Made by a program: the position numbers and the translations under genes. This document shows, piece by piece, positions 15,931 to 30,068 of a stretch of 64,000 bases of DNA. The notes beneath the pieces are model-generated. The model was not told the DNA's origin. It did not search any database and saw only the letters and a program-made list of their open reading frames with translations. This DNA is from Candidatus Marinacidobacterales bacterium (GTDB taxonomy: Bacteria > Acidobacteriota > Vicinamibacteria > Marinacidobacterales > SMYC01): NCBI GenBank assembly GCA_965237955.1, contig OZ250169.1, positions 1,920,001 through 1,984,000 on the forward strand. Direction: 5' to 3'. Numbering within the stretch: position 1 is the first letter of the stretch; every line of letters starts with the position of its first letter.

Positions 15931-16701
15931 CTACCGTCGGTGAACGGTCGGAGTCCGCGCGCTTAGTGCCCCGTCGGCTTCGAGCGCCAACTGTCTTCGA
16001 CCCTTCCGCACCATCAAAAAAAGTGCGAGCGCTACCGAGAACAAGACGACGACGACGGCCGTCCCGAGGATGACGACGGTTGTCGCCAGCACCGAACGTC
16101 GCTCGAACCTCGCCTCGACGACGAGCTCGGTTGCATCGAAGTGCTCGGCGGCGGTGCGCTCCCAACCAATGATGTTGCCGCGCTCGATGTCGCTCCGTGA
16201 GTTGTAGTAGCGCACGGTACTCGGGAAGTGGAACCGGAGCGCGATGGTTGCGTCCGGGGAAACCCCTTCGGGGATGTCTCCCTCCGGTACGGGCAAGGTG
16301 AGATACAACTCGAGTTCGTCGTCGTCGGTGACGTCGAGACGGCACTCGCGGTCGGCGAAAGCGGGATGAGCGCACAGCTCGTTCCAGTCGGCGAACCGCC
16401 CTTGGACGTGGACGAAGATCCGTCCTTCCCGCTCGGTCTCGCGGACCGAGTCGAGCTCGAAGCCCGGACCCTCGAACCGAGAAGTCATCGACGACGCGCT
16501 CCCCCCGTCGGCCCCGTTGAGCCTGTTGAGAGCGTGGAACGCTTCCAATATCTCGGACGAGCCACTCACCCGGAGTCGACCCGAGCCGTCGACTTCGAGA
16601 AATACCTCCTCCTCGTACTCGTAGGAAGTGCACGCGGGGAGCGCGAGCGCCCAAGGGACCAGAAGTGTCAGAAGTATAGGTGCCGTCCCATGGTGTCCCA
16701 T
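15931..16701 (-). CDS. putative lipoprotein with a C-terminal TM anchor
   Basis: Hydrophobic leader ending LPAC; DGSG motif; C-terminal hydrophobic helix followed by RKGRR. Confidence 0.7.
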   Translation of the reverse strand: MGHHGTAPILLTLLVPWALALPACTSYEYEEEVFLEVDGSGRLRVSGSSEILEAFHALNRLNGADGGSASSMTSRFEGPGFELDSVRETEREGRIFVHVQGRFADWNELCAHPAFADRECRLDVTDDDELELYLTLPVPEGDIPEGVSPDATIALRFHFPSTVRYYNSRSDIERGNIIGWERTAAEHFDATELVVEARFERRSVLATTVVILGTAVVVVLFSVALALFLMVRKGRRQLALEADGALSARTPTVHRR

Positions 16702-16749
16702 GGTGTCGATTCTATAGCGCGGGCATCCGCTGCGATACAATGCCCCCTC

Positions 16750-19443
16750 ATGCCAACGGGCTCGAGCTCGTCCAGGGACTCGCGCGAGCTCCTTCTGCTC
16801 GTCGACGGGAATAACTTAGTCTACCGGTCGTTTTTCGCCATTCCCCCTCTCGCGAACCGCTCGGGCATCCCGACGAACGCGGTCCTCGGCTTTGCCAACG
16901 TGCTCCGAAAGCTCCTCGCCGATGAGACGCCGGCGCTGGCCGCAGTGACCTTCGACGCAGGCGGGAAGACGTTTCGTCATGAACGGTTCGAGGCGTACAA
17001 GGCGAACCGGCCGCCGACGCCGCCCGACCTGAGGCAACAAATCCCGCATACGCGAAGACTGTGCGAAGTGCTGGGTCTAACCATCGTCGAAATTTACGGT
17101 GTCGAAGCGGACGACATCATCGGGACGCTGGCGCGCCGCGGGCTCGAGGCGGGCTACCGCGTTGACATCGTCACCTCGGACAAAGATCTGTTCCAACTCG
17201 TGGGCGATGACATCACTGTCGTCCATCCCGTCCAATACGAGCGTCTCGATGCGGCGGGCGTCGAGAAAAAGCTCGGTGTTGCTCCCGAGCGGGTGGTGGA
17301 TTTCCTCGCGATGAAGGGCGATGCGGTGGACAACGTTCCCGGCGTGCCCGGGATCGGGGACAAGGGCGCAGCGAAGCTCATCAACGAGTGGGAAACGCTG
17401 GAAGAGATTCTCGCCCATGCGGACGAGGTCAAGAACAAGCGACAGCGAGAGGCGTTGAAAGAGCACCACGATACGGCGCTGCTCTCGAAAGAGCTGGTTA
17501 CCATCGACACCAGGCTGGATTTCGAGCTCGACCCCGAAGAGCTCCGCTACAAGGGTGCGGACCGCGATGCCGCGTTCGCGCTCTTCGAAGAGCTCGAGTT
17601 CACGACACACATCAAAGATTATTTGCCAGCAGGGGAGCCCGTCGACCTCACCGCGTCGTTTCGGGCGCTCGGCTCGAAGAGCGAGCTCTCGAGCTTCGTC
17701 GATGCCGCCAAAAAACGCGGGAAGGTCTCTGTTTGGCTCGATTTGACCGAAGTGAAGCGCTTCGCTCCCTGGAATCAGCGCCTTGTCGGCCTCGGTCTCG
17801 CCGTCGAGCCCGGCGAAGGCGTGTACGCGACACTCGACGAAGCTGATCTTCTGGCAAGTTTGAAGGACATTGTGAGCGATCGCGATGTTGTCAAAGTTGG
17901 GCATGATCTGAAACAAGCGGTGACCTTCTTCGGGGCGCGTGGCATCCAATTTCGCGGTCTTGGCTTCGATACGAGAATCGCGGCTTACGTCTTGAACCCT
18001 TCGCGTCGCTCGCAGGATCTAGGCGAGCTTCTGCTGGAGTTCCTGCAAACGCCGCTCACGAAAGCGGGGGACGGGCAGGATGGGCAAGATCAGGGCGTTT
18101 TGCCAGGGCTCGCCGAGCCCGGTGCCGAAGCCACGGGGCCGCTCAACGCCGAGCGCGCGGAGCGAATCCTACGGCTCGAAGAGAAAATGGAGCGGCGCAT
18201 CGAAGACGAAGAGCTGGGCGAGGTCTTTCGAGATATCGAGATGCCCCTCATCGAAGTCCTTGCGCGTATGGAGCTCGCGGGGATCGCCATCGATCGCGAC
18301 GAGTTCATCGCGATGGCAAAGACGATCGATAGAGACATCGACGCGCTCACGAAAGAGATTCACGAGCTCGCCGGCGTCGAGTTCAACATCAACTCGCCAC
18401 GGCAGCTCGGCGAGATCCTGTTCGACAAGATGAACCTTCCATCGTTCAAGAAGACGGAGAAGCAACGAGCCGCATCGACTCGGGTGGAGGTGCTCGAGGA
18501 GCTCGCTCGAAGTTTCCCGTTTCCGCGTAAGGTTCTCGACTACCGGAGCCTGGCGAAGCTCAAAGGGACTTACGTCGACGCGCTCCCGAATCTGGTGAGC
18601 CCGGAGACAGGCCGTATCCACACCACGTTCAATCAAACGGTCGCCGCGACCGGGAGACTCTCGTCAAGCGACCCCAACCTTCAGAACATTCCGATCCGTA
18701 CTGAGCTAGGGCGGCGGCTCCGGCGTGCGTTTGTGGCCGAGCCGGGGTCGCAGTTGCTCTCGGCGGATTATTCACAAATCGAGCTTCGGGTTTTGGCACA
18801 CCTCAGCAAGGACGAGAACCTCATCAAGGCGTTTCGGGACGACGAAGACATCCACGATCGGACCGCGCAGCACGTCTTTGGTGATGTGGTGGAGCTTGAC
18901 GATATCGAGCGGCGCGAACGGCGTCGCCGGGCGAAGATCATCAACTTCAGCATTATTTATGGCAAGACGGCCTACACGCTCGGGAAGGACTTCGCCATCC
19001 CGACCCGAGAGGCGCAGGCGTTCATCGATAGCTACTTCGAACGGTACCCGAAGGTGCGCGAGCTCCTCGACGAGATCATTCTTGACGCGCGCAAGACGGG
19101 GAAAGTACGAACGCTCTTCGGCCGGCAGCGCTACGTGCCCGAGATTGGCTCCCGCAATCGCAATACCCGGGCGGGCGCCGAGCGGGTGGCGGTGAATACC
19201 CCGATTCAGGGGACGGCTGCTGACCTTATCAAGAAAGCCATGCTCGATCTGTCGTGGGGGCTCGAGGAAGGGGGACTCCGCTCGCGCTTGCTGCTGCAAG
19301 TTCACGACGAGCTCGTGCTCGAAGTGCCCGAGGATGAATTGGATAGGGCGAGCGAGCTCGTACGCACGACCATGGAGGGCGTCTATCCGATGGATGTGCC
19401 CTTGAAGGTGGATTTGGCTGTTGGGAGATCGTGGGAACACTAA
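16750..19443 (+). CDS. polA: DNA polymerase I
   Basis: LLVDGNNLVYRSFFA 5' nuclease, EADD, GDAVDNVPGVPGIG, ADYSQIELR, AKIINFSIIYG, QVHDE; 3'-5' exonuclease motif looks degenerate; start ATG16750. Confidence 0.97.
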   Translation: MPTGSSSSRDSRELLLLVDGNNLVYRSFFAIPPLANRSGIPTNAVLGFANVLRKLLADETPALAAVTFDAGGKTFRHERFEAYKANRPPTPPDLRQQIPHTRRLCEVLGLTIVEIYGVEADDIIGTLARRGLEAGYRVDIVTSDKDLFQLVGDDITVVHPVQYERLDAAGVEKKLGVAPERVVDFLAMKGDAVDNVPGVPGIGDKGAAKLINEWETLEEILAHADEVKNKRQREALKEHHDTALLSKELVTIDTRLDFELDPEELRYKGADRDAAFALFEELEFTTHIKDYLPAGEPVDLTASFRALGSKSELSSFVDAAKKRGKVSVWLDLTEVKRFAPWNQRLVGLGLAVEPGEGVYATLDEADLLASLKDIVSDRDVVKVGHDLKQAVTFFGARGIQFRGLGFDTRIAAYVLNPSRRSQDLGELLLEFLQTPLTKAGDGQDGQDQGVLPGLAEPGAEATGPLNAERAERILRLEEKMERRIEDEELGEVFRDIEMPLIEVLARMELAGIAIDRDEFIAMAKTIDRDIDALTKEIHELAGVEFNINSPRQLGEILFDKMNLPSFKKTEKQRAASTRVEVLEELARSFPFPRKVLDYRSLAKLKGTYVDALPNLVSPETGRIHTTFNQTVAATGRLSSSDPNLQNIPIRTELGRRLRRAFVAEPGSQLLSADYSQIELRVLAHLSKDENLIKAFRDDEDIHDRTAQHVFGDVVELDDIERRERRRRAKIINFSIIYGKTAYTLGKDFAIPTREAQAFIDSYFERYPKVRELLDEIILDARKTGKVRTLFGRQRYVPEIGSRNRNTRAGAERVAVNTPIQGTAADLIKKAMLDLSWGLEEGGLRSRLLLQVHDELVLEVPEDELDRASELVRTTMEGVYPMDVPLKVDLAVGRSWEH

Positions 19444-19458
19444 AATCTAGTTGGGGCG

Positions 19459-19638
19459 GCCATCAGCCATCAGCCGTCATCTTCCTCTTGATCCGCCATC
19501 AGCCGTCCGCCATCTGCCATCAGCAGGTTTGAGCTGCACGCGTTTTGGCGGGACACGAGCAGCTCGGTGTGCCGCCGTCCGGGGTTAGGGCAGCTCCGTC
19601 CTGCTGATGGCTGATGGCCGATGGCCGATGGCGACGGC
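19459..19638. repeat. inverted pair of heptamer tandem arrays (GCCATCA)n...(GCTGATG)n
   Basis: Arms end in CCATCAGCAGG (19517-19527) and CCTGCTGATGG (19600-19610); lies between convergent polA and HAD genes. Confidence 0.8.
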
Positions 19639-21277: not shown

Positions 21278-21330
21278 TGAGGCGACACTGCGCGCAGTTC
21301 CGGGGGTGTCGACCAGTGGAAGAAAAAATA

Positions 21331-21429
21331 ACGCAAAGTCGCAAAGTCGCGAAGTCGCAAAGGGGTCGACGCCGCTTTGCTTCACTCGATTCGAGTTCTT
21401 TGCGCCTTTGCGTCTTCGCGCCTTTGCGA
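21331..21429. repeat. inverted pair of octamer tandem arrays (CGCAAAGT)n...(CTTTGCGC)n
   Basis: Four 8-nt units on each arm around a ~35-nt spacer. Confidence 0.8.
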
Positions 21430-21463
21430 TTGTTTTTTGGCAACGGCCACTAGGCACTCGCAC

Positions 21464-22702
21464 TTGTCGCTGCGCGTGCTCCTGCTGCTGCCAACATCGA
21501 CTTACCGCACCCGCGACTTCATGGAAGCTGCGGCCCGACTAGGGGCTCTGGTCGTCGTCGCATCGGAAGAGCCCTCTACGATGGAGCGCCTCGCGGAAGA
21601 TTCGTTGCTGACGCTCGATTTCCTCGACGCTTCGGGATCGGCGGCGAAAGTGGTTTCGTTCCATGAGCGGTACCCGCTGAGCGCAGTCGTTTCCGTCGAC
21701 GAAGAGACGGCCGTCGTGGCCTCGACCATCTCCCAGAAGCTCGGTCTTCCTCATAACGCTCCCGAAGCCGCGATGCGAGCACGGCTCAAACACGTTATGC
21801 GCCGCGTCCTCGAAGCGGAGGGAGTTCCCGGTCCCGCGTATCGCGTGCTCGATACTGGGGACGATCCACGCCAGGCTGCGAGGCAGTTGCGCTATCCCGC
21901 CGTCGTCAAGCCGGTGTTTTTGTCAGGAAGCCGGGGAGTGCAACGGGTGAATGACGAAGAAGCGTTCGTCGGTGCGTTCGAGTGGTTGCGAAGCTTTCTC
22001 TCGCATCGCGACGTCAGAAAGCGCGGCGGCGAGCATGCAAGTGTCGTTCTACTGGAGGACTACGTACCGGGAGCCGAAGTTGCCCTCGAAGGGCTCTTGT
22101 CCGACGGGAAGCTCGAGATGCTCGCGCTCTTCGACAAACCCGATCCGCTCGAAGGCCCGTACTTCGAGGAGACGATCTACGTCACCCCGTCCCGGCTGTC
22201 GTCCGCGCTCAAAAACCAGATCGTCGAGGTCACGACACGTGCCGCTACGGCGCTTGGCTTGCGCCATGGCCCGGTCCACGCGGAGCTGAGACTGCCGCCT
22301 GAGCGCGCACCCTCGGTGATCGAGATTGCCGGAAGGTCGATCGGCGGGCTCTGCTCGCGGACGCTCCGTTTCGGTCTCGGCCTCTCTCTCGAAGAGCTGA
22401 TTTTGCGCCACGCTCTGGGTCGAGACGTGTCCGGTCTCGATCGTGAAGGGGGCGCTGCCGGCGTCATGATGATCCCAATCCCGAAAATGGGCATGCTCGA
22501 AGAGGTCACCGGCCTTGACGAAGCGAAGGCAACGGACGCGATCGAGGATGTAATCATCACCGCCCCACTTGGACGACGACTCGTACCTCTACCGGAAGGC
22601 TCGAGCTACCTGGGCTTCATCTTCGCCCGCGCCACGACACCCACCGAAGTCGAAGAGGCACTACGCGAAGCCCACCAAAAACTACGCTTCGCGATCAGCT
22701 GA
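21464..22702 (+). CDS. ATP-grasp domain ligase (L-amino-acid-ligase-like)
   Basis: K..MR..L, YPAVVKP..LSGSRGV, LLEDYVPG.E, FDKPDPLEGPYFEET, HAELR, IEIAGRSIGG; start TTG21464 inferred. Confidence 0.88.
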   Translation: MSLRVLLLLPTSTYRTRDFMEAAARLGALVVVASEEPSTMERLAEDSLLTLDFLDASGSAAKVVSFHERYPLSAVVSVDEETAVVASTISQKLGLPHNAPEAAMRARLKHVMRRVLEAEGVPGPAYRVLDTGDDPRQAARQLRYPAVVKPVFLSGSRGVQRVNDEEAFVGAFEWLRSFLSHRDVRKRGGEHASVVLLEDYVPGAEVALEGLLSDGKLEMLALFDKPDPLEGPYFEETIYVTPSRLSSALKNQIVEVTTRAATALGLRHGPVHAELRLPPERAPSVIEIAGRSIGGLCSRTLRFGLGLSLEELILRHALGRDVSGLDREGGAAGVMMIPIPKMGMLEEVTGLDEAKATDAIEDVIITAPLGRRLVPLPEGSSYLGFIFARATTPTEVEEALREAHQKLRFAIS

Positions 22703-22743
22703 TGGCCGACGGCTGATGGCCGATGGCGTGTCGGCGGCCAAAT

Positions 22744-23334
22744 TCACTTCGACGGAGCGTAATAAGGGTTTCTTCCCGTCGCGTGGTCGGTCGTGTCCAT
22801 GATCGCGCCGATCTGGGGGACGGCTTGGCGGATTGATTTTTCCACACCCTGTTTCAACGTCACGTCGGCCATGCCGCAACCCTGGCACCCGCCGCCCATT
22901 TTAATGAAGACCTCGTTATTCTTGACGTCAATGAGCTCGACCCAGCCGCCGTGCGCGGCGACGGCGGGATTGATCTCGCCGTCGAGGACGCTTTGAATTT
23001 TCTTCTTGATCTCCTCGGGATCGGGAAGAGCGCGAAGCGCGTCTTCGGCGATCGGCGTCTCGTCGCTCGAAAGCACCGAGCGGATCACAGTGCCGACTTG
23101 CTTGGCGATCGGCATCCAGTTGCCGCCGGTCGCCGCGGAGACGGTGACGACGCTGTCCTGGACCAGGACCGACTCGACGGTGTCGATCGCGAAGATCTGT
23201 TCGGCTAGGGGCGAGCCCTCGGCTTGCGCCTTGGCGCCGAAATAGATGGAGCCGTCGGGATAAACGGGCCTGTCCACCGTGAAGCGACAGGTCTGGTCGT
23301 CCTTGGGCTCTGCCTGGATGCTTATCTCGTCCAT
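22744..23334 (-). CDS. Nfu-type Fe-S cluster carrier (Nfu_N + NifU-C)
   Basis: SPLAEQIF N-terminal domain; INPAVAAHGG...MGGGCQGCG...TLKQGVE...DTTDH. Confidence 0.9.
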   Translation of the reverse strand: MDEISIQAEPKDDQTCRFTVDRPVYPDGSIYFGAKAQAEGSPLAEQIFAIDTVESVLVQDSVVTVSAATGGNWMPIAKQVGTVIRSVLSSDETPIAEDALRALPDPEEIKKKIQSVLDGEINPAVAAHGGWVELIDVKNNEVFIKMGGGCQGCGMADVTLKQGVEKSIRQAVPQIGAIMDTTDHATGRNPYYAPSK

Positions 23335-23342
23335 TTTTCCTC

Positions 23343-24755
23343 CTAATACGGTTCCATGATACTACGGCGCGGCCCCGCTTCCGAGAGGACCAACTGGTCC
23401 TCGGTAGGCTCCGCTCAGCAAAACCACGCTTCGGTGAGGCGGGGCGCTTTGGCCGTCCCGGCTCCGAGTGGCACGTTCACACCGACGAGCTCGGCTAGAG
23501 AACGGAAAACATCAGGGTTCGACAAGCCGTCGCGCGTTCCCGACGCGACCAGGGCCGTCGCCTCTTCGTGGAGCCGATCCATCTCTGGATCGGGATGGGT
23601 CCAGCGATAGGTGAGCGCGGCGCGATCCAACTCACCGAGGTGCGGTCGAAGCCCGGGGTTTTCGAGTAGCAAGGCTCCCGGCGGCAAGAGAAGCCTCAAC
23701 GTGAGCTGGATCGGGTCGACGTGGTGGATGAGGTCCTCGTCGGCCACCCAACGAAACAGCTCGCGATAATCGTCGTAGCTCGTCCACGGGGTGAACGCCA
23801 CGAACGTGGGTCGAAGGGCAATCCCGGCTTCGCGTGTGAGCGTCAAGACTTCGCGTGCATCTCGGGCGGTGTGGCCCTTGTCGAGCTCTTCGAGCACACG
23901 GTCGCTCAACGATTCCACGGCGGAAACGATGAAGGTGCACCCTGAGTCCGCGAGCTCTTCCAAGTCGTCGCGTCGCTTGAGAATGTGCTCCACTTTCGCG
24001 GTGAAGTCGAACGTCATCGCCGGATGTTCTCGATGCATCGCGCGGACGATCTCGAGCGCGTGACGCGGTCCGTTCAGAAAATCGGGATCGGCGAAGTTGA
24101 TGTGGCGCGCGCCCGCCTCGACGAGCTGTCGGATATCGGAGAGCACGGTTTCCGGGGGCACGACGAAAAAGCGTCCGTGGTAGACCGGGGGCAGAGGGCA
24201 GTGCCTGCAGTGATGGCGGCAGCCGCGACTCGCTTCGACGGTTCCGACGATCGCGTGCGATCCGTCGGTGCGCTCGACATGAACGTAGCGGTCGAGCTTC
24301 GGGAGCTGGGCTCGCTCGGGCACGAGATAGTCGAGTCGCTTCCGAAACGGTGCCGGTACCAGGGGCACGCGCTCGTCCCGGGTGATCCAGGACACCAGCG
24401 CTTCGTCGCACTCGCCACTCAAAACGGCATCGGCTCCGGCACTATCGACGAGCATTTCCGAGTTGAGGGTGGCATAGAGCCCGTAAAAGCAAAGTTGGCA
24501 GCCTGGATTGAGCTCCAGGACGCGCTCGGCCACGAGGACACCCAGACGGAGCGCCGTGTGCATCGGGACCGATACCGCGACGAAATCCGCGCGCCGTACT
24601 TTGTCCTCGTCGAGCGGATCCACGCCCAGATCGATGGCCTCGGCCTCGATGCCAGCGCGCTCCAAAAAAGCCAGTGGGCTCGCCAGACCCAACGGCTGGT
24701 GTCCCAACTCGTAGCACGAGATCAGGAGCACGTTGGGGCGTGCGGGATGGTGCAT
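23343..24755 (-). CDS. B12-binding radical SAM selenoprotein with a CUAEP tail (Sec at TGA 23415-23417)
   Basis: N-terminal B12-binding-like domain; SRGCRHHCRHC; readthrough gives TEAWFC-U-AEPTEDQLVLSEAGPRRSIMEPY* ending at TAG 23343, 8 nt before the nfu ATG. Confidence 0.88.
23381..23404 (-). promoter_or_regulatory. candidate bacterial SECIS hairpin
   Basis: Minus strand CC-GAGGACC-AGTT-GGTCCTC-TCGG beginning about 10 nt after the UGA; G in the apical loop. Confidence 0.65.
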
Positions 24756-24819: not shown

Positions 24820-24970
24820 CGTGCCCGTGCCCTACCCCCTCCTCGATACTAAAATGATGATAGGAGCCATCGACTTCTGACTTCGAGCCCGGCTGCCGAA
24901 TGTGCGGCAATCTTGGACGTTTTGCCAGCGATGGCGCGCGAGCGAAAACGGATCGGGCACGGGCACGGGG
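24820..24970. repeat. inverted hexamer tandem units (CGTGCC)n...(GGGCAC)n
   Basis: CGTGCCCGTGCCC at ~24820 and CGGGCACGGGCACGGG at ~24954; similar single arms at 50390-50412 and 63827-63848. Confidence 0.55.
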
Positions 24971-25053
24971 GGTGGCAATCTAGTTATCGGGAACTGGATT
25001 CCATAAAACGGAACGTGCATAATGCACGGGCATCTACGCCGCCCATCTCACGG

Positions 25054-27240
25054 ATGAGGATATCGGGGTCTCGAATACCTGGCACTTCTGACCAACCGGG
25101 CATCGCTATCGCCGGATACACCTTACGAGGTCTCCTGTTTGCTTTTCTCCTCGTCGCTCCGGCGGAGGTCCGCGCCCAAGATGAAGTGACCCTGCAGGCG
25201 GAAACCCAGCAACAGCTGGGCGACGGTCTCGTCAAAGCTGAGGGGTACGTTTCCATCCGTGCCGGATCGGCGCACCTGACCGCGGATCGTGTCGATTATT
25301 GGCCAGATGAAGGCCGCGTCGTTGCCGAGGGCAACGTCGTGTACCAGCAAGACGACCAGAAGATCGTTGCCGCTCGGCTCGAGGTAGACCTGAATACCAA
25401 AACCGGCCGGTTCTTGAACGCTTTCGGTATGGCGGGCCGCGACTTCTACTTCTATGGGGATGTCATCGAGAAAAAGTCCGAGGACATTTACGTTATCGAG
25501 GGCGGCTGGTTTACGTCGTGCGCGCAGCCGACCCCTCGGTGGCAGTTCACTGCCGGTAAGGCGACGCTGAAGCGAGACCACCACGTATCGCTCCATCACA
25601 CGCTGTTGCGGGTGAAGTCGCTCCCGGTGTTCTACTTGCCCTATTTCTATTACCCCATCAACGACGAGGACCGCTCCACGGGGCTGTTATTGCCCCAGAT
25701 CGGGAACTCCTCGTTGAAAGGCTTCATCTACAACCAAGCGTTCTTTTGGGCGATCAACCGTTCGATGGACGCGACGTTTACCTTCGAGCGGTTTTCGGAG
25801 ATCGGAAACGGTGGCTCACTCGAATACCGCTACGTCGAAAGCCCCGGCTCACGAGGTGAGGTCGACGCGTTCTTGATTCGGAACTCGCAGGCGAACACCC
25901 AGGAGTACACCATCAACGCGTTCGTGAACCAGAGACTGCCCTGGAACTTCAAAGCGGTCGCTCGCGTCGATTTTTTCAGCAGCTTCGAGTTCCAGCAGCA
26001 GTTTCAGGAAAACTACAACCGTGCCACGAGGCGCTCCAAGAGAGCATCGGGCACGATCTCTGGATCGTTCAACCAGTACAACCTCCGTATCCTGTTCGAT
26101 CGCAACGACACGTCCTTCGGTGAGCGTGTTGCGGTCCGGAAGATCCTGCCGAGCGTGAAGCTGAGCTCGCGCCCGAGCGAGATTTTCGGCACGCCGATTC
26201 TCTTCTCGTTCAAGACGGAGGCGACATCTCTCGCGCGAACCACCCGGGGCCAGTTGTTCGAGTACGAGCGCTTCGACGTTTTCCCGACCGTGTCCTATCC
26301 GTTCACGGGCCTGAGCTATCTAACAGCGCGCCTGAGCCTCTCGGGACGATACACGCACTATACGTCGGCGTTGGCAGGCCGAGACCTCGAAGACGTGGGT
26401 ATCGACCGGAAGTACTTCGAGACGCGCATGGACGTCCGTGGCCCGACGTTCGCGAAGATTTTCAATTCTGACAACGGTGGCTACGCGGCGGCGTACAAGC
26501 ACATCATCGAGCCTCAAGTGGTGTGGAGTTATCGCTCACGCGTCGACAACTTCGACTTCATCCCCAAGTTCGACGGTCAGGACTACGTTCCGGGAACCAA
26601 CCAGGTCGCGTTCTCTCTCGTCAACCGTTTTCTTGCGAAGCGCATCGTCAACGGAAAAGAGCAGCAGACCGCGACCGCGATGCTGACGTGGACCCTCTCC
26701 CAGCGCTACTTCTTCAACATCAACGCGTCGCTCTACGACCGGCAATTCTCGACGCCCTACTATTCAGAGGGCGGTATTCCGAGTAGTCGCTCGCCGATTA
26801 CTTCCCGAGTAAACTACCGCCCGTCACGAAACCTCACCGCCAGTTGGAACTTGGACTACGACTTGAACTTCAACGCGATCCGCTCCTCGAGCACCGCGGC
26901 GACTTATGGAGGACGGTGGGGGTCGGTGCGCGGTCTGTGGACGCGCCGCAATATTCCCGATCGGGATGTCAAACGCAGCAACTTCCGGATCGGTACCGCG
27001 TTGAACGTAGCCCGCGGAACTCAAGTCAACTTTAACACGAGCTACGACGTCACTTCGAGAGAGCTCACCAACGTGCGTGCCGGCGTTGTCTACAACATCC
27101 AATGCTGTGGGTTCATGGTCGAGTTCAACCGTTTCAACTTCCGCGGGTTCCGCGAAGAGAACACGATTCGGTTCGGGATTACGCTCGCCAATATCGGGAG
27201 CTTCGGCACCTCGCTCGGCGGTTCCGGGCGCGTGTACTGA
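25054..27240 (+). CDS. lptD: LPS assembly protein LptD
   Basis: Signal peptide, OstA-like jellyroll (AEGNV, FTSC...P.W), R.TGLL.P, beta-barrel ending in QCC; start uncertain (ATG25054 chosen). Confidence 0.88.
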   Translation: MRISGSRIPGTSDQPGIAIAGYTLRGLLFAFLLVAPAEVRAQDEVTLQAETQQQLGDGLVKAEGYVSIRAGSAHLTADRVDYWPDEGRVVAEGNVVYQQDDQKIVAARLEVDLNTKTGRFLNAFGMAGRDFYFYGDVIEKKSEDIYVIEGGWFTSCAQPTPRWQFTAGKATLKRDHHVSLHHTLLRVKSLPVFYLPYFYYPINDEDRSTGLLLPQIGNSSLKGFIYNQAFFWAINRSMDATFTFERFSEIGNGGSLEYRYVESPGSRGEVDAFLIRNSQANTQEYTINAFVNQRLPWNFKAVARVDFFSSFEFQQQFQENYNRATRRSKRASGTISGSFNQYNLRILFDRNDTSFGERVAVRKILPSVKLSSRPSEIFGTPILFSFKTEATSLARTTRGQLFEYERFDVFPTVSYPFTGLSYLTARLSLSGRYTHYTSALAGRDLEDVGIDRKYFETRMDVRGPTFAKIFNSDNGGYAAAYKHIIEPQVVWSYRSRVDNFDFIPKFDGQDYVPGTNQVAFSLVNRFLAKRIVNGKEQQTATAMLTWTLSQRYFFNINASLYDRQFSTPYYSEGGIPSSRSPITSRVNYRPSRNLTASWNLDYDLNFNAIRSSSTAATYGGRWGSVRGLWTRRNIPDRDVKRSNFRIGTALNVARGTQVNFNTSYDVTSRELTNVRAGVVYNIQCCGFMVEFNRFNFRGFREENTIRFGITLANIGSFGTSLGGSGRVY

Positions 27241-27259
27241 CAGATGCCGTGAAAATCCC

Positions 27260-28123
27260 GTGAAAATCCTGGTGACGGGAGCCGGTGGGCTCGTCGGAAG
27301 CCTCGTCGTCGAGCGCGCGGCGGCGGATCATGACATCCGCGGTCTTGTGCGTGCCGAGCTCGACGTCACCGACCCGGGCGCCGTCCGGAGCGCCGTTCGG
27401 GAGTTTTCCCCGCACGTCGTGCTACACTGCGCGGCTTACACCGACGTGGACGGCGCCGAGCGCAACCCGGAGCGGGCCCTCGAAGTGAACGCGGATGCCA
27501 CCGAGCAGGTGGCGGTCGCGGCCAAAGAGCTTGGAGCGAGCCTGGTCTATGTCAGCACCGACTATGTATTCGATGGCAAAGGGGCGACGCCCTATCGAGA
27601 AAGTGACGCCACAAAACCTCTCTCGAGCTACGGGGTCTCGAAGCTCGAAGGTGAGCGACGGGTGGAGGACGCGTGTCCCGAGCGCTTCATCATCGTTCGC
27701 ACCGGTTGGCTCTACGGAGCCGGCAAAGGTTTTGTGGACTGGGCCCGCGCCCGCCTGGTCGGGTCCGAGCAGCTTCCCGTCGTCGACGATCAAAAAGGCT
27801 CGCCGACATACGCGGGCGATCTGGCCGATGCGCTTCTCGAGCTCGCCACCGGCGCTCATCGTGGCGTCTTTCATTTCGTGAACCAAGGGGAAGCAACCTG
27901 GCTCGACCTCGGCCGCGCCGTCGCCCAAGAGCTGGGCCACGGCCCGGCGAAGTTGAAGCCGATCCGTGGGGAAACGCTGCGGCGTCCGGCACCGAGACCG
28001 GCGTATTCGGCTCTGTCAGTCAGCCACTACGAGAAAACGACTGCAAAGCGCGTTCGCCCCTGGCGCGAAGCGCTGAACGCATATTTGCGGATGGCTGATG
28101 GCCGACGGCCGATGGCGGATTGA
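27260..28123 (+). CDS. rfbD: dTDP-4-dehydrorhamnose reductase
   Basis: ILVTGAGGLVG, AAYTDVDGAE, STDYVFDG, YGVSK, DQKGSPT, APRPAYS; GTG27260. Confidence 0.93.
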   Translation: MKILVTGAGGLVGSLVVERAAADHDIRGLVRAELDVTDPGAVRSAVREFSPHVVLHCAAYTDVDGAERNPERALEVNADATEQVAVAAKELGASLVYVSTDYVFDGKGATPYRESDATKPLSSYGVSKLEGERRVEDACPERFIIVRTGWLYGAGKGFVDWARARLVGSEQLPVVDDQKGSPTYAGDLADALLELATGAHRGVFHFVNQGEATWLDLGRAVAQELGHGPAKLKPIRGETLRRPAPRPAYSALSVSHYEKTTAKRVRPWREALNAYLRMADGRRPMAD

Positions 28124-28133
28124 AGGAGAACGA

Positions 28134-29096
28134 ATGAAAGCACTGATAACTGGAATCACCGGCTTCGCGGGAAGTCATCTAGCCGAGTACATCCTCGGCG
28201 AGCATCGCGACTACGAGGTCTACGGCACGATGCGGTGGCGAAGCCGAACCGAGAACATCCGAGATATCGAGTCCAAGATCCAACTGATCGAGTGCGACGT
28301 GAGGGACTCGAGCTCGGTCAAGAAGCTCATCGAGCGTGCGGAGCCCGATCGCATCTTCCACCTCGCGGCGCAAAGCTTCGTGCCGTCGTCGTGGAACGCT
28401 CCTGCGGAGTCGCTCAGCACCAACATTCTCGGTCAGCTCAACATTTTCGAAGCCGTGCGGGCACTGAACCTCGACCCGTGGATCCAGATCGCATGCTCGA
28501 GCGAAGAGTACGGGATGGTCTATGAGGACGAGCTGCCGATCAAAGAGACGAACCCGCTGCGTCCACTGTCACCGTACGCGGTGAGCAAAGTGGGGCAGGA
28601 CTATCTTGGCTACCAATACTGTCAGAGCTTCGGCATGAAAGTGATCCGCACCCGTGGGTTCAACCACGACGGCCCGCGGCGGGGCGACGTGTTCGTGTCA
28701 TCGAACTTCGCCAAGCAGCTCGTCGCGATCGAGAAAGGCAAAAAACCACCGCTCATCGAGGTGGGTAACCTCGAAGCCCGACGTGATTTCACCGACGTGC
28801 GCGACATGGTTCGAGGGTACTGGCTCGCGCTCGATGGAAACTGTGAGCCCGGTGAAGCGTACAACATCGCAAGCGGCACCGACTGGTGCATCCAGGACGT
28901 GCTCGACAAGTTGATCGATCTGTCGGGTCAGAAAGTCGAAGTCCGGGAAGATCCAGCCAGGCTGCGCCCTTCCGACGTGCCCGTGCTCCTCGGCGATGCG
29001 TCGAAGTTCAGAAAAGCCACGGGCTGGACGACCAGTATTCCCTACGAGCAAACGCTTCAGGACATGCTCGACTACTGGAGAGCGGAGATCGACTAA
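28134..29096 (+). CDS. GDP-mannose 4,6-dehydratase-family SDR
   Basis: LITGITGFAGSHL, HLAAQSFV, SSEEYG, PLSPYAVSK, GNLEARRDF. Confidence 0.88.
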   Translation: MKALITGITGFAGSHLAEYILGEHRDYEVYGTMRWRSRTENIRDIESKIQLIECDVRDSSSVKKLIERAEPDRIFHLAAQSFVPSSWNAPAESLSTNILGQLNIFEAVRALNLDPWIQIACSSEEYGMVYEDELPIKETNPLRPLSPYAVSKVGQDYLGYQYCQSFGMKVIRTRGFNHDGPRRGDVFVSSNFAKQLVAIEKGKKPPLIEVGNLEARRDFTDVRDMVRGYWLALDGNCEPGEAYNIASGTDWCIQDVLDKLIDLSGQKVEVREDPARLRPSDVPVLLGDASKFRKATGWTTSIPYEQTLQDMLDYWRAEID

Positions 29097-30068
29097 GTGC
29101 TGTCCCTCGTCACTGGAGCGGCTGGCTTCGTCGGCCGTCATCTCACCCGGCACTTGAAAGACCGCGGGCACGTTGTATCGGCCCTCGTCCACCCGAGCGA
29201 GCACAACGAGGACCTCGAGCTCGATGGTGTCGCCACCATCGAAGCCGCCGATCTGTTGGACGAGCGTGCGCTCGCGGGCGCCGTCGCCCGCCTCGAGCCG
29301 GATGCGATCTATCACCTCGCCGCGTTCTCGAACCCCGAGAGCTCCCTGAAGTATGCGCGCCAGACTTTGGAGACCAACATTCTCGGCACCCAAAATCTCT
29401 TGGAGGCTGCGCGCCACGGCGGACGCGCGCCCCGGATACTCCTCGTTGGCTCGGCTCAGCAGTACGGGAAGGTCACCGAAGACGAGCAACCGATTTCAGA
29501 AGAGCGTGTTCAGAAACCCCTCACCCCCTACTCGGTGAGCAAGGCGTCCCAAGAGCTTCTCGGGCAGAGCTATTTTCTTTCGGAAGGCTTGCCCGTTTTT
29601 TGGACTCGCTCGTTCAACCATACCGGCCCGGGCCAGGCGGACTTCTACGTTTGTTCCAGCTTCGCCCGGCAGGTGGCAGAGGTTGAAAACGGCAAGAGAG
29701 CTCCCGAGATCCACGTGGGAAACCTTGCCGCGCGGCGTGATTTCACCGACGTACGCGACGTCGCACGCGCGTACACGGCGATCGTCGAGCGCGGTCAGCC
29801 GGGCCGCGCCTACAACGTTTGCCGTGGAGAGGCGGTATCGATTCAGGAAGTGCTCGACACGTTGATCGAGCTTTCGACCGCGGACGTCGAAGTGCGAGTC
29901 GACCCGGAGCGCTACCACGCGCTCGATGCCCCGTTGATTTTCGGCGACGCCACCCGTCTTCGTGAAGATACCGGGTGGAGTCCCGAGTTTTCTCTCAGAG
30001 ACACCCTCTCCGACTTATTGAACGACTGGCGCGGCAAGATCAACAAGGGCGACGAAAACAACAGGTAG
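29097..30068 (+). CDS. GDP-sugar dehydratase/reductase SDR (Rmd-like)
   Basis: TGAAGFVG, YHLAA, YSVSK, RSFNHTGPGQ, VGNLAARRDF. Confidence 0.85.
   Translation: MLSLVTGAAGFVGRHLTRHLKDRGHVVSALVHPSEHNEDLELDGVATIEAADLLDERALAGAVARLEPDAIYHLAAFSNPESSLKYARQTLETNILGTQNLLEAARHGGRAPRILLVGSAQQYGKVTEDEQPISEERVQKPLTPYSVSKASQELLGQSYFLSEGLPVFWTRSFNHTGPGQADFYVCSSFARQVAEVENGKRAPEIHVGNLAARRDFTDVRDVARAYTAIVERGQPGRAYNVCRGEAVSIQEVLDTLIELSTADVEVRVDPERYHALDAPLIFGDATRLREDTGWSPEFSLRDTLSDLLNDWRGKINKGDENNR

Follow-up and report, generated by a model that had tools for sequence, protein, structure and literature searches.

What do a radical S-adenosylmethionine (SAM) selenoenzyme, an ATP-grasp ligase and an iron–sulphur (Fe–S) carrier accomplish together when their genes lie side by side? 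The question is raised by a locus of Candidatus Marinacidobacterales bacterium (assembly GCA_965237955.1), found in a stretch of 64,000 nucleotides of contig OZ250169.1 (positions 1,920,001 to 1,984,000) that is termed the window throughout. An earlier note on this DNA had proposed that the ligase, the Nfu-type carrier and a B12-type radical SAM enzyme (rSAM) form a compact, undescribed pathway that makes or modifies a small molecule or cofactor. The three genes and their convergent layout, with the ligase gene on the + strand and the nfu and rSAM genes both on the − strand, are borne out by open reading frame (ORF) and domain evidence, and each is present in one copy in the source genome. The core claim, that of an undescribed pathway joining this rSAM family to this ATP-grasp subfamily, is strongly supported by their co-inheritance and by a model of their complex. 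As to what the pathway does, the reading tentatively preferred here, at a little under even confidence, is that rSAM and ligase modify the Fe–S carrier itself, a product bearing the aminocarboxypropyl (ACP) group of SAM being amide-linked to a lysine in the C-terminal tail of Nfu or YggX. A free small-molecule product, as first envisaged, is possible and is now the second-best reading.

Co-inheritance of the rSAM and the ligase

Of 201 genomes searched in the phylum, 31 hold the rSAM and 35 a ligase of the subfamily (34 if the unpublished genome G053 is not counted); 30 hold both and 165 neither. The ligase was called at E ≤ 6e-75, the next match lying at 1e-33. Sixteen of the 30 rSAM–ligase pairs lie within about 1 kb, another is separated by 10 kb and the remaining 13 are unlinked, and a renewed search of the five ligase-only genomes recovered no rSAM of the family, which is named CUAEP after its tail. 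Within the family of the source organism the rSAM is matched in 18/18 genomes, and the gene order is kept in the loci that were fetched. The same pattern was found in 151 genomes from the class of an Actinomycetota metagenome-assembled genome (rSAM in 56, ligase in 66), where the ligase is present in all 56 rSAM genomes, and nine second-phylum genomes of 1.0–1.1 Mb have kept both genes, other genomes of that size having neither. Genomes from further lineages in which the rSAM is unlinked also carry the ligase elsewhere (4/4), and the pair is adjacent, in several orders, in loci titled Rokubacteria, Eisenbacteria, Acidobacteriota and Actinomycetes. Kin genomes are not independent of each other; the co-inheritance nevertheless repeats across phyla. 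The earlier note had staked its proposal on the two subfamilies occurring together, and it stands, the ligase accompanying the rSAM in 30/31 and 56/56 genomes.

Complex prediction, on models, supports a physical interaction in which rSAM and ligase would bind each other: the pair scored 0.65, against 0.00 for the best control, with a partner predicted local distance difference test (pLDDT) value of at least 89, and of the solved complexes 116/157 passed the mark set for this score, as did 2/215 of the mismatched pairs. Agreement between the runs was at least 0% of contacts. Natural fusions of the two proteins were considered and set aside; five of 12 long ligase matches hold both Pfam domains, but their junctions are frameshifted, P0262 being the sole fairly clean case, and long matches are counted here as adjacency and not as fusion evidence.

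A tail lysine in two unrelated Fe–S carriers

The carrier at the locus resembles NfuA and other Nfu proteins in its ordinary NifU-like domain with a CQGC motif and in being present once per genome. It falls below the NfuA equivalog (TIGR03341 / NF008392; 94 against 269), an Nfu_N domain standing in place of the A-type domain of that model. All 31 rSAM genomes hold either an NfuA-type Nfu (17) or, where Nfu is missing, YggX (14), compared with 80 of the 170 other genomes. The YggX family matches PF04362 and is presumed from the Pfam name to have an Fe–S role. The listed coordinates place 17/17 of these Nfu genes and 12/14 of the YggX genes no more than 3.5 kb from the rSAM or the ligase. Nfu adjoins the ligase in 14/14 second-phylum ligase loci, and it remains beside the ligase where the rSAM lies elsewhere. 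Within 5 kb, across 158 loci, the neighbours comprise Nfu (74), YggX (17), CDGSH (17) and DUF169 (14) proteins, along with aconitase (7), citrate synthase (4) and MoaA (4); Nfu-type carriers are described as maturing Fe–S proteins including aconitase under oxidative stress (PMC8593673).

The two carriers share a feature that sets the module forms apart from their relatives, namely a C-terminal extension, xxxK, whose presence tracks that of the ligase. In Nfu proteins from genomes or loci with the rSAM–ligase module, the tail reads NP[YF][YF]-x-x-x-K, with a lysine at +4 or +5 in 87/87 distinct sequences (exactly +4 in 85), as against 1/36 in non-module Nfu from genomes without ligase or rSAM; two rows without the motif were left out, one a frameshifted module row and the other a non-module row without the lysine. 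Non-module Nfu proteins mostly stop one or two residues past the aromatic pair or end in QSRR or QARR, and the close non-module orthologues end in QSRR or QARR. Among second-phylum non-module Nfu proteins, fetched after the pattern had been seen, the lysine is present in 0/11. In YggX a tail lysine is found in 18/18 module and 5/20 non-module sequences (five rows without the motif left out). For comparison, lysine is the last residue in 3.9% of the long coding-like frames of the source genome. On the Nfu tree, 11 changes are counted in module status and 10 in the lysine, and the ligase-only genomes G107, G166 and G068 retain the lysine; the lysine, then, follows the ligase. Because further residues come after it in 44 of the 87 module Nfu proteins, and because non-module orthologues have arginine or a stop in its place, acylation of the ε-amine, rather than modification of the C-terminal carboxylate, would be the probable chemistry. 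A ligase-linked tail lysine in two unrelated carriers is new here; no such tail or modification is mentioned in section 11 of PMC8593673.

These observations bear on the proposal that Nfu merely supplies clusters to the rSAM, as NfuA does for LipA. That role does not account for the pattern, since Nfu stays with the ligase, a protein that has no cluster motif, where the rSAM is elsewhere, since YggX replaces it in genomes that lack Nfu, and since both carriers have the ligase-linked lysine.

Further proteins were seen in this context. A CDGSH protein is encoded divergently from the rSAM at L001:6133-6417 and at 16 other, Rokubacteria-like loci, mostly with a KK-containing tail; these counts refer to module loci only. 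At L156, L161 and L165, YggX-like proteins with long Gly-rich tails that hold SSK-GGG and end in RKK are encoded upstream of the rSAM, in two copies at L161. DUF169 was rejected as a core part, since only 14 of the 158 loci have it at a distance of up to 5 kb and it is unlinked in the source genome. There, two copies of a DUF169 gene, each with a CGC-motif gene next to it that we take to be bacilliredoxin-like, lie near transposase genes (G000:C1:2949890-2951331 and 3896370-3897811).

The rSAM is a selenoprotein related to ArsL

The rSAM was said in the earlier note to be a selenoenzyme, and five lines of evidence establish that its in-frame TGA encodes selenocysteine (Sec). Under translation table 11 the gene ends at this codon (23415-23417); read as Sec, the frame extends to 23343 with a WFC-U-AEP tail, and the read-through protein matches NF040546 at 601.4 bits against a cut-off of 500. 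Both tRNA-Sec and SelA were found in the source genome. A single TGA is present in every NF040546 match over the cut-off (21/21, from 31 related genomes), and the distinct tails among the fetched loci comprise 53 with TGA and 2 with TGT. Across 42 loci, a 6-bp hairpin past the UGA is paired in 92% of cells and shows 57 two-sided changes; it exceeds shuffled and slid controls and is best at slide 0, the support coming from this covariation and not from the hairpin of the window itself, which is unremarkable (z −1.47). Lastly, the stop codon of the read-through frame, TAG, overlaps the Shine-Dalgarno sequence of nfu, 4 nt ahead of its ATG. A comparable gene was seen on a Thermomicrobium roseum plasmid (L036:11935-13371), where the annotated CUAEP gene stops at the TGA, the hairpin is present and neither a ligase nor an Nfu gene lies within 12 kb.

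Although the window rSAM belongs by score and CU tail to NF040546, that family is uncharacterised. In the literature searched, outside which most subscription journals lie, it is the subject of a single sentence (10.1101/2022.07.06.499078), the term 'ATP-grasp' being absent from that paper's main text, and nothing relevant was found that links ATP-grasp or selenocysteine to ArsL or arsinothricin. The next-best family is ArsL (NF040542), an enzyme of arsinothricin biosynthesis (arsQML), which the rSAM matches at 318.7, below the cut-off of 450. Compared with ArsL proteins that end in RCCLKC, it shows 34–37% identity over the full length, with shared core motifs and the CU pair aligned to CC. 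In a quick tree of 61 rows, a single clade (support 99) unites the CUAEP rows with those of ArsL; in it the ArsL clade (99) stands beside CUAEP, one long CUAEP branch falling with ArsL. Of the 92 positions at which conservation reaches 80% or more in 81 CUAEP rows, 61 are common to at least three of four ArsL-like rows; M65, H66, H185, H295, E442 and W444 are specific to CUAEP.

ArsL is reported to convert SAM to methylthioadenosine and an ACP species and to place ACP onto As(III), its tail cysteines binding arsenic (10.1101/2024.02.01.577332; 10.64898/2026.04.29.721666; PMC8552651). It was reconstituted with SAM and a reductant, and the main text names no cobalamin (10.1101/2024.02.01.577332). 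The best inference, by analogy, is that the rSAM works like ArsL. Identity with ArsL was tried and rejected, as the protein misses the NF040542 score, the three-cysteine tail and the location in an ars cluster that includes arsM and an exporter. It differs from ArsL also in about 50 extra C-terminal residues and in its family-specific His, Met, Glu and Trp residues, and the module differs in having a near-obligate ligase partner and an Fe–S carrier context.

Two further sequences deserve mention. P0144 is an rSAM of the CCAEP type fused to a C-terminal MerB-like domain, a single sequence that is possibly a read-through artefact. The source genome also encodes an ArsM-like methyltransferase (G000:C1:2255642-2256466; L085:1468-2295) that has an in-frame TGA (WTG-U-IAG), lacks the N-terminal cysteine pair and lies under all NCBIfam cut-offs; it was rejected as a partner of the module, close relatives being found in only 11 of the 31 module genomes.

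The ligase has the architecture of L-amino acid ligases

The ATP-grasp protein has the ATPgrasp_N, ATP-grasp_4 and LAL_C2 domains of an L-amino acid ligase, and its fold agrees. The nearest ligase by both sequence and fold is BL00235 (E 1e-38; profile 1.5e-70; TM 0.84 to 3VOT), which is reported to make Met-Gly and Met-Met (PMC6920838). With BL00235, BacD and RizA it shares the three-domain fold and the ATP-grasp Lys, Glu and Arg; it differs from them in its 26% identity, in its own FDKPDP...GP.FEE motif, in a subfamily loop R-x-I-G-G-L-C whose Cys297 is kept in 40/40 members, and in being tied to an rSAM and a carrier lysine and not to a known dipeptide cluster. RimK and LysX models scored far below cut-off for the proteins of the locus. 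The carrier-lysine pattern points, from sequence comparison, to a protein acceptor for the ligase.

Two plasmid-borne Bacillota clusters also merit mention, L037:5142-11278 (NC_011777.1) and L038:6124-11278 (NC_013206.1), which combine an ArsL with an RCCLKC tail, ars genes, an AhpD-like protein and an ATP-grasp protein of L-amino acid ligase type. Their content suggests arsinothricin dipeptides, and the literature search found no paper on ATP-grasp in Bacillota ArsL clusters.

Proposed mechanism and alternatives

The mechanism that is tentatively preferred would begin with the rSAM moving the ACP group of SAM onto a soft atom X held by the Cys446–Sec447 pair. The product would be handed over inside the rSAM–ligase complex, activated by the ligase with ATP and then joined as an amide to the ε-amine of the carrier lysine. 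Sulphur or selenium would rank first as X, giving a (seleno)homocysteinyl-lysine arm, and arsenic second. The arm may provide an additional ligand for a cluster or for iron, Cys297 of the ligase possibly holding the thiol, and its likely role would be to maintain [4Fe-4S] enzymes that are sensitive to oxygen, aconitase among them. Every chemical step here is inferred, with the ACP chemistry taken from homology to ArsL. Lysine arms, ATP-grasp action on protein and radical ACP transfer to protein have precedents among lipoylation, the LysW/LysX carriers and diphthamide. These systems share the logic of the proposal and differ from it in enzymes and acceptors; Dph2 is not a PF04055 enzyme. The parts of the module belong to named families, and on the balance of readings the system would be new.

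A number of observations weigh against carrier modification. Kinship inflates the lysine counts: on well-supported branches there are two independent pairs for Nfu and two for YggX, a number that does not suffice for a sign test, and the tree-corrected test is not significant. One genome without the module, G034, has a lysine at +5 in its Nfu, and a conserved tail lysine could equally be a docking residue. The rSAM is present without a detectable ligase in G063 and at the Thermomicrobium plasmid locus. One of the three complex runs gave 0.28, and the residues of the predicted interface are poorly conserved. Among solved structures, the L-amino acid ligases with the closest fold couple free amino acids. 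A third conserved tail cysteine was found in none of 81 rows of the CUAEP family, and the ACP chemistry is assumed, the residues for Cγ cleavage in ArsL being unnamed in the parts of the papers examined. Finally, a radical synthesis of homocysteine from SAM looks wasteful, so that sulphur as X is not secure.

The same ligase kinship underlies a reading in which the pair makes a free, non-arsenical ACP dipeptide (a thiol, a selenol or a nicotianamine-like iron ligand) for Fe–S repair, with the Nfu or YggX lysine either serving for docking or carrying the product on its amino group for a time before release. This is judged unlikely but deserves to be taken seriously: BL00235 joins free amino acids, and methionine, which it places in Met-Gly and Met-Met, is itself an ACP amino acid; the Fe–S context is explained as well as by carrier modification; and small thiols overlap functionally with Nfu (PMC8593673). 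By itself, though, it predicts no lysine that tracks the ligase in two unrelated carriers, and no conserved transporter or releasing peptidase was found among the recurrent neighbours. A simple replacement of bacillithiol or glutathione was also rejected: GshB was not found in the source genome, but BshC is present there and in 16/31 module genomes, compared with 116/201 overall, so that no replacement pattern emerged for bacillithiol.

Less probable again is an organoarsenical pathway, in which the Cys–Sec tail, with its two ligands, would bind methylarsenite for a one-step synthesis of arsinothricin or a relative, which the ligase would mask as a dipeptide or tether. ArsL is the only characterised sister enzyme, and its 'MCCA' mutant, a name taken here to denote loss of the third cysteine, is reported in a review (PMC13598754, section 5.1) to be the best catalyst on methylarsenate. 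ArsL clusters of Bacillus and Alicyclobacillus also hold an ATP-grasp gene, but the encoded proteins are 22–25% identical to the window ligase and have Asp in the loop where it has Leu-Cys. The ArsM-like selenoprotein of the source genome has close relatives in 13/201 genomes, of which 11 are module-positive, mostly in two families, and one database protein fuses the rSAM to a MerB-like domain. Set against this, no acr3, arsB, arsA, arsC, arsR or arsN was found in 80 metagenome loci, methyltransferase matches being weak there and in the genome loci, and no arsenic family was found among the annotated neighbours in sets of 133 and 39. ArsM over its cut-off is present in 14/31 module genomes as against 113/201 overall, and the source genome has neither ArsM over cut-off nor Acr3; retention of the module in the nine genomes of 1.0–1.1 Mb speaks in the same direction. 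Very improbable, lastly, is that the rSAM is a cobalamin methylase, as the earlier note had assumed, or a canonical 5'-deoxyadenosyl radical enzyme, with Nfu as cluster supplier and the ligase finishing an unrelated metabolite. The AlphaFold model (pLDDT 95; about 90 for tail residues 441-450) has a Rossmann-type domain and resembles rSAMs of the B12-domain type, AprD4 first and then OxsB, MgmA and TsrM, but these are 16–18% identical, compared with 34–37% for ArsL, of which no structure was found in a search of the PDB. The match to the B12-binding domain PF02310 (27.2 bits) is under its cut-off of 32.1, all NCBIfam models of B12-rSAMs fall far below theirs, and Nfu follows the ligase and not only the rSAM. 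Dependence on B12 is thus not upheld, the sister ArsL having been reconstituted as described, and a methylation role is unsupported, since the sister family, ArsL, transfers ACP.

Features and surroundings of the locus

The coordinates of the locus are collected in Table 1.

Table 1. Genes, motifs and repeats of the locus, numbered as in the window
Feature	Position	Strand	Remarks
ATP-grasp ligase gene	21464-22702	+	412 aa; PF18130 + PF13535 + PF18603; nearest solved structure BL00235 (3VOT)
nfu gene, NfuA-type Fe–S carrier	22744-23334	-	Nfu_N + NifU domains, CQGC
rSAM gene, CUAEP-tail selenoprotein (NF040546)	23343-24755	-	470 aa, Sec447; sister family of ArsL
[4Fe-4S] motif CxxxCxxC	24198-24221	-	C179, C183, C186; CRHHCRHC; invariant His vs Tyr in ArsL-like rows
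Cys446–Sec447 vicinal pair (TGC TGA), WFC-U-AEP tail	23415-23420	-	Counterpart of the As-binding RCCLKC tail of ArsL
SECIS-type hairpin	23385-23401	-	17-33 nt from UGA; covaries across phyla
rSAM stop TAG over AGGAGG Shine-Dalgarno of nfu	23339-23345	-	Coupling after Sec read-through
Nfu C-terminal tail NPYYAPSK	22747-22770	-	Lys196, the module-linked lysine, proposed acyl acceptor
Ligase loop R291-S-I-G-G-L-C297	22334-22354	+	Cys297 invariant in 40/40 subfamily members
Periodic inverted repeat, REP-like	21323-21437	.	Genome-wide; outside the system
REP-like repeat between converging ligase and nfu ends	22698-22728	.	Genome-wide; outside the system

The locus was described in the earlier note as inserted among housekeeping genes and bracketed by periodic hairpins. 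Domain and family searches did identify housekeeping neighbours (ppiA, a HAD hydrolase and lptD), but insertion is not confirmed, as the arrangement recurs in relatives and nfu is the only match of its type in the genome. The hairpins likewise exist, as two families of periodic REP-like inverted repeats (window 19457-19633, 21323-21437 and 22698-22728) whose core words have 127 and 39 copies in the genome, or 127-173 for the first family; because these core words recur genome-wide, the hairpins do not mark the locus, and they were ruled out as its boundaries. Further upstream lies a DNA polymerase I-like gene (16228-19443), and downstream (24913-30068) lptD is followed by RmlD- and GDP-mannose-dehydratase-like sugar genes, labels assigned by inspection of the sequence. 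No small ORF that might encode a precursor peptide recurs across phyla among the neighbours of 139 loci, ORFs of at least 55 aa being considered. A public-run contig over 23291-23703 shows zero differences from the window and may stem from the source sample. Contigs from RNA libraries, from relatives that diverge by a few percent, cover parts of all three genes; such contigs cannot prove transcription.

Significance

The analysis proposes a function, open to experimental test, for a large orphan family of selenoenzymes whose only studied relative performs the rare chemistry of radical ACP transfer, and it names a concrete acceptor in Lys196 of Nfu. Should the organoarsenical or free-dipeptide reading be true, the system would be a pathway of the ArsL kind, and its product a new ACP metabolite, possibly an organoarsenical or a selenium compound, from many uncultured lineages. 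In its fullest form the preferred reading, carrier modification, is a possibility that we hold with some doubt: a widespread post-translational modification in which a Sec-containing rSAM and a ligase build a (seleno)homocysteinyl or ACP arm on the tail lysine of NfuA or YggX. With similar reserve, that arm may be a built-in thiol ligand, comparable to glutathione in monothiol glutaredoxins; its bearers would be soil and marine bacteria, including some with genomes as small as 1 Mb. If this is true, the Fe–S carriers of abundant soil and marine bacteria would bear a modification hitherto unknown, and a fold known from L-amino acid ligases would act on a protein lysine.

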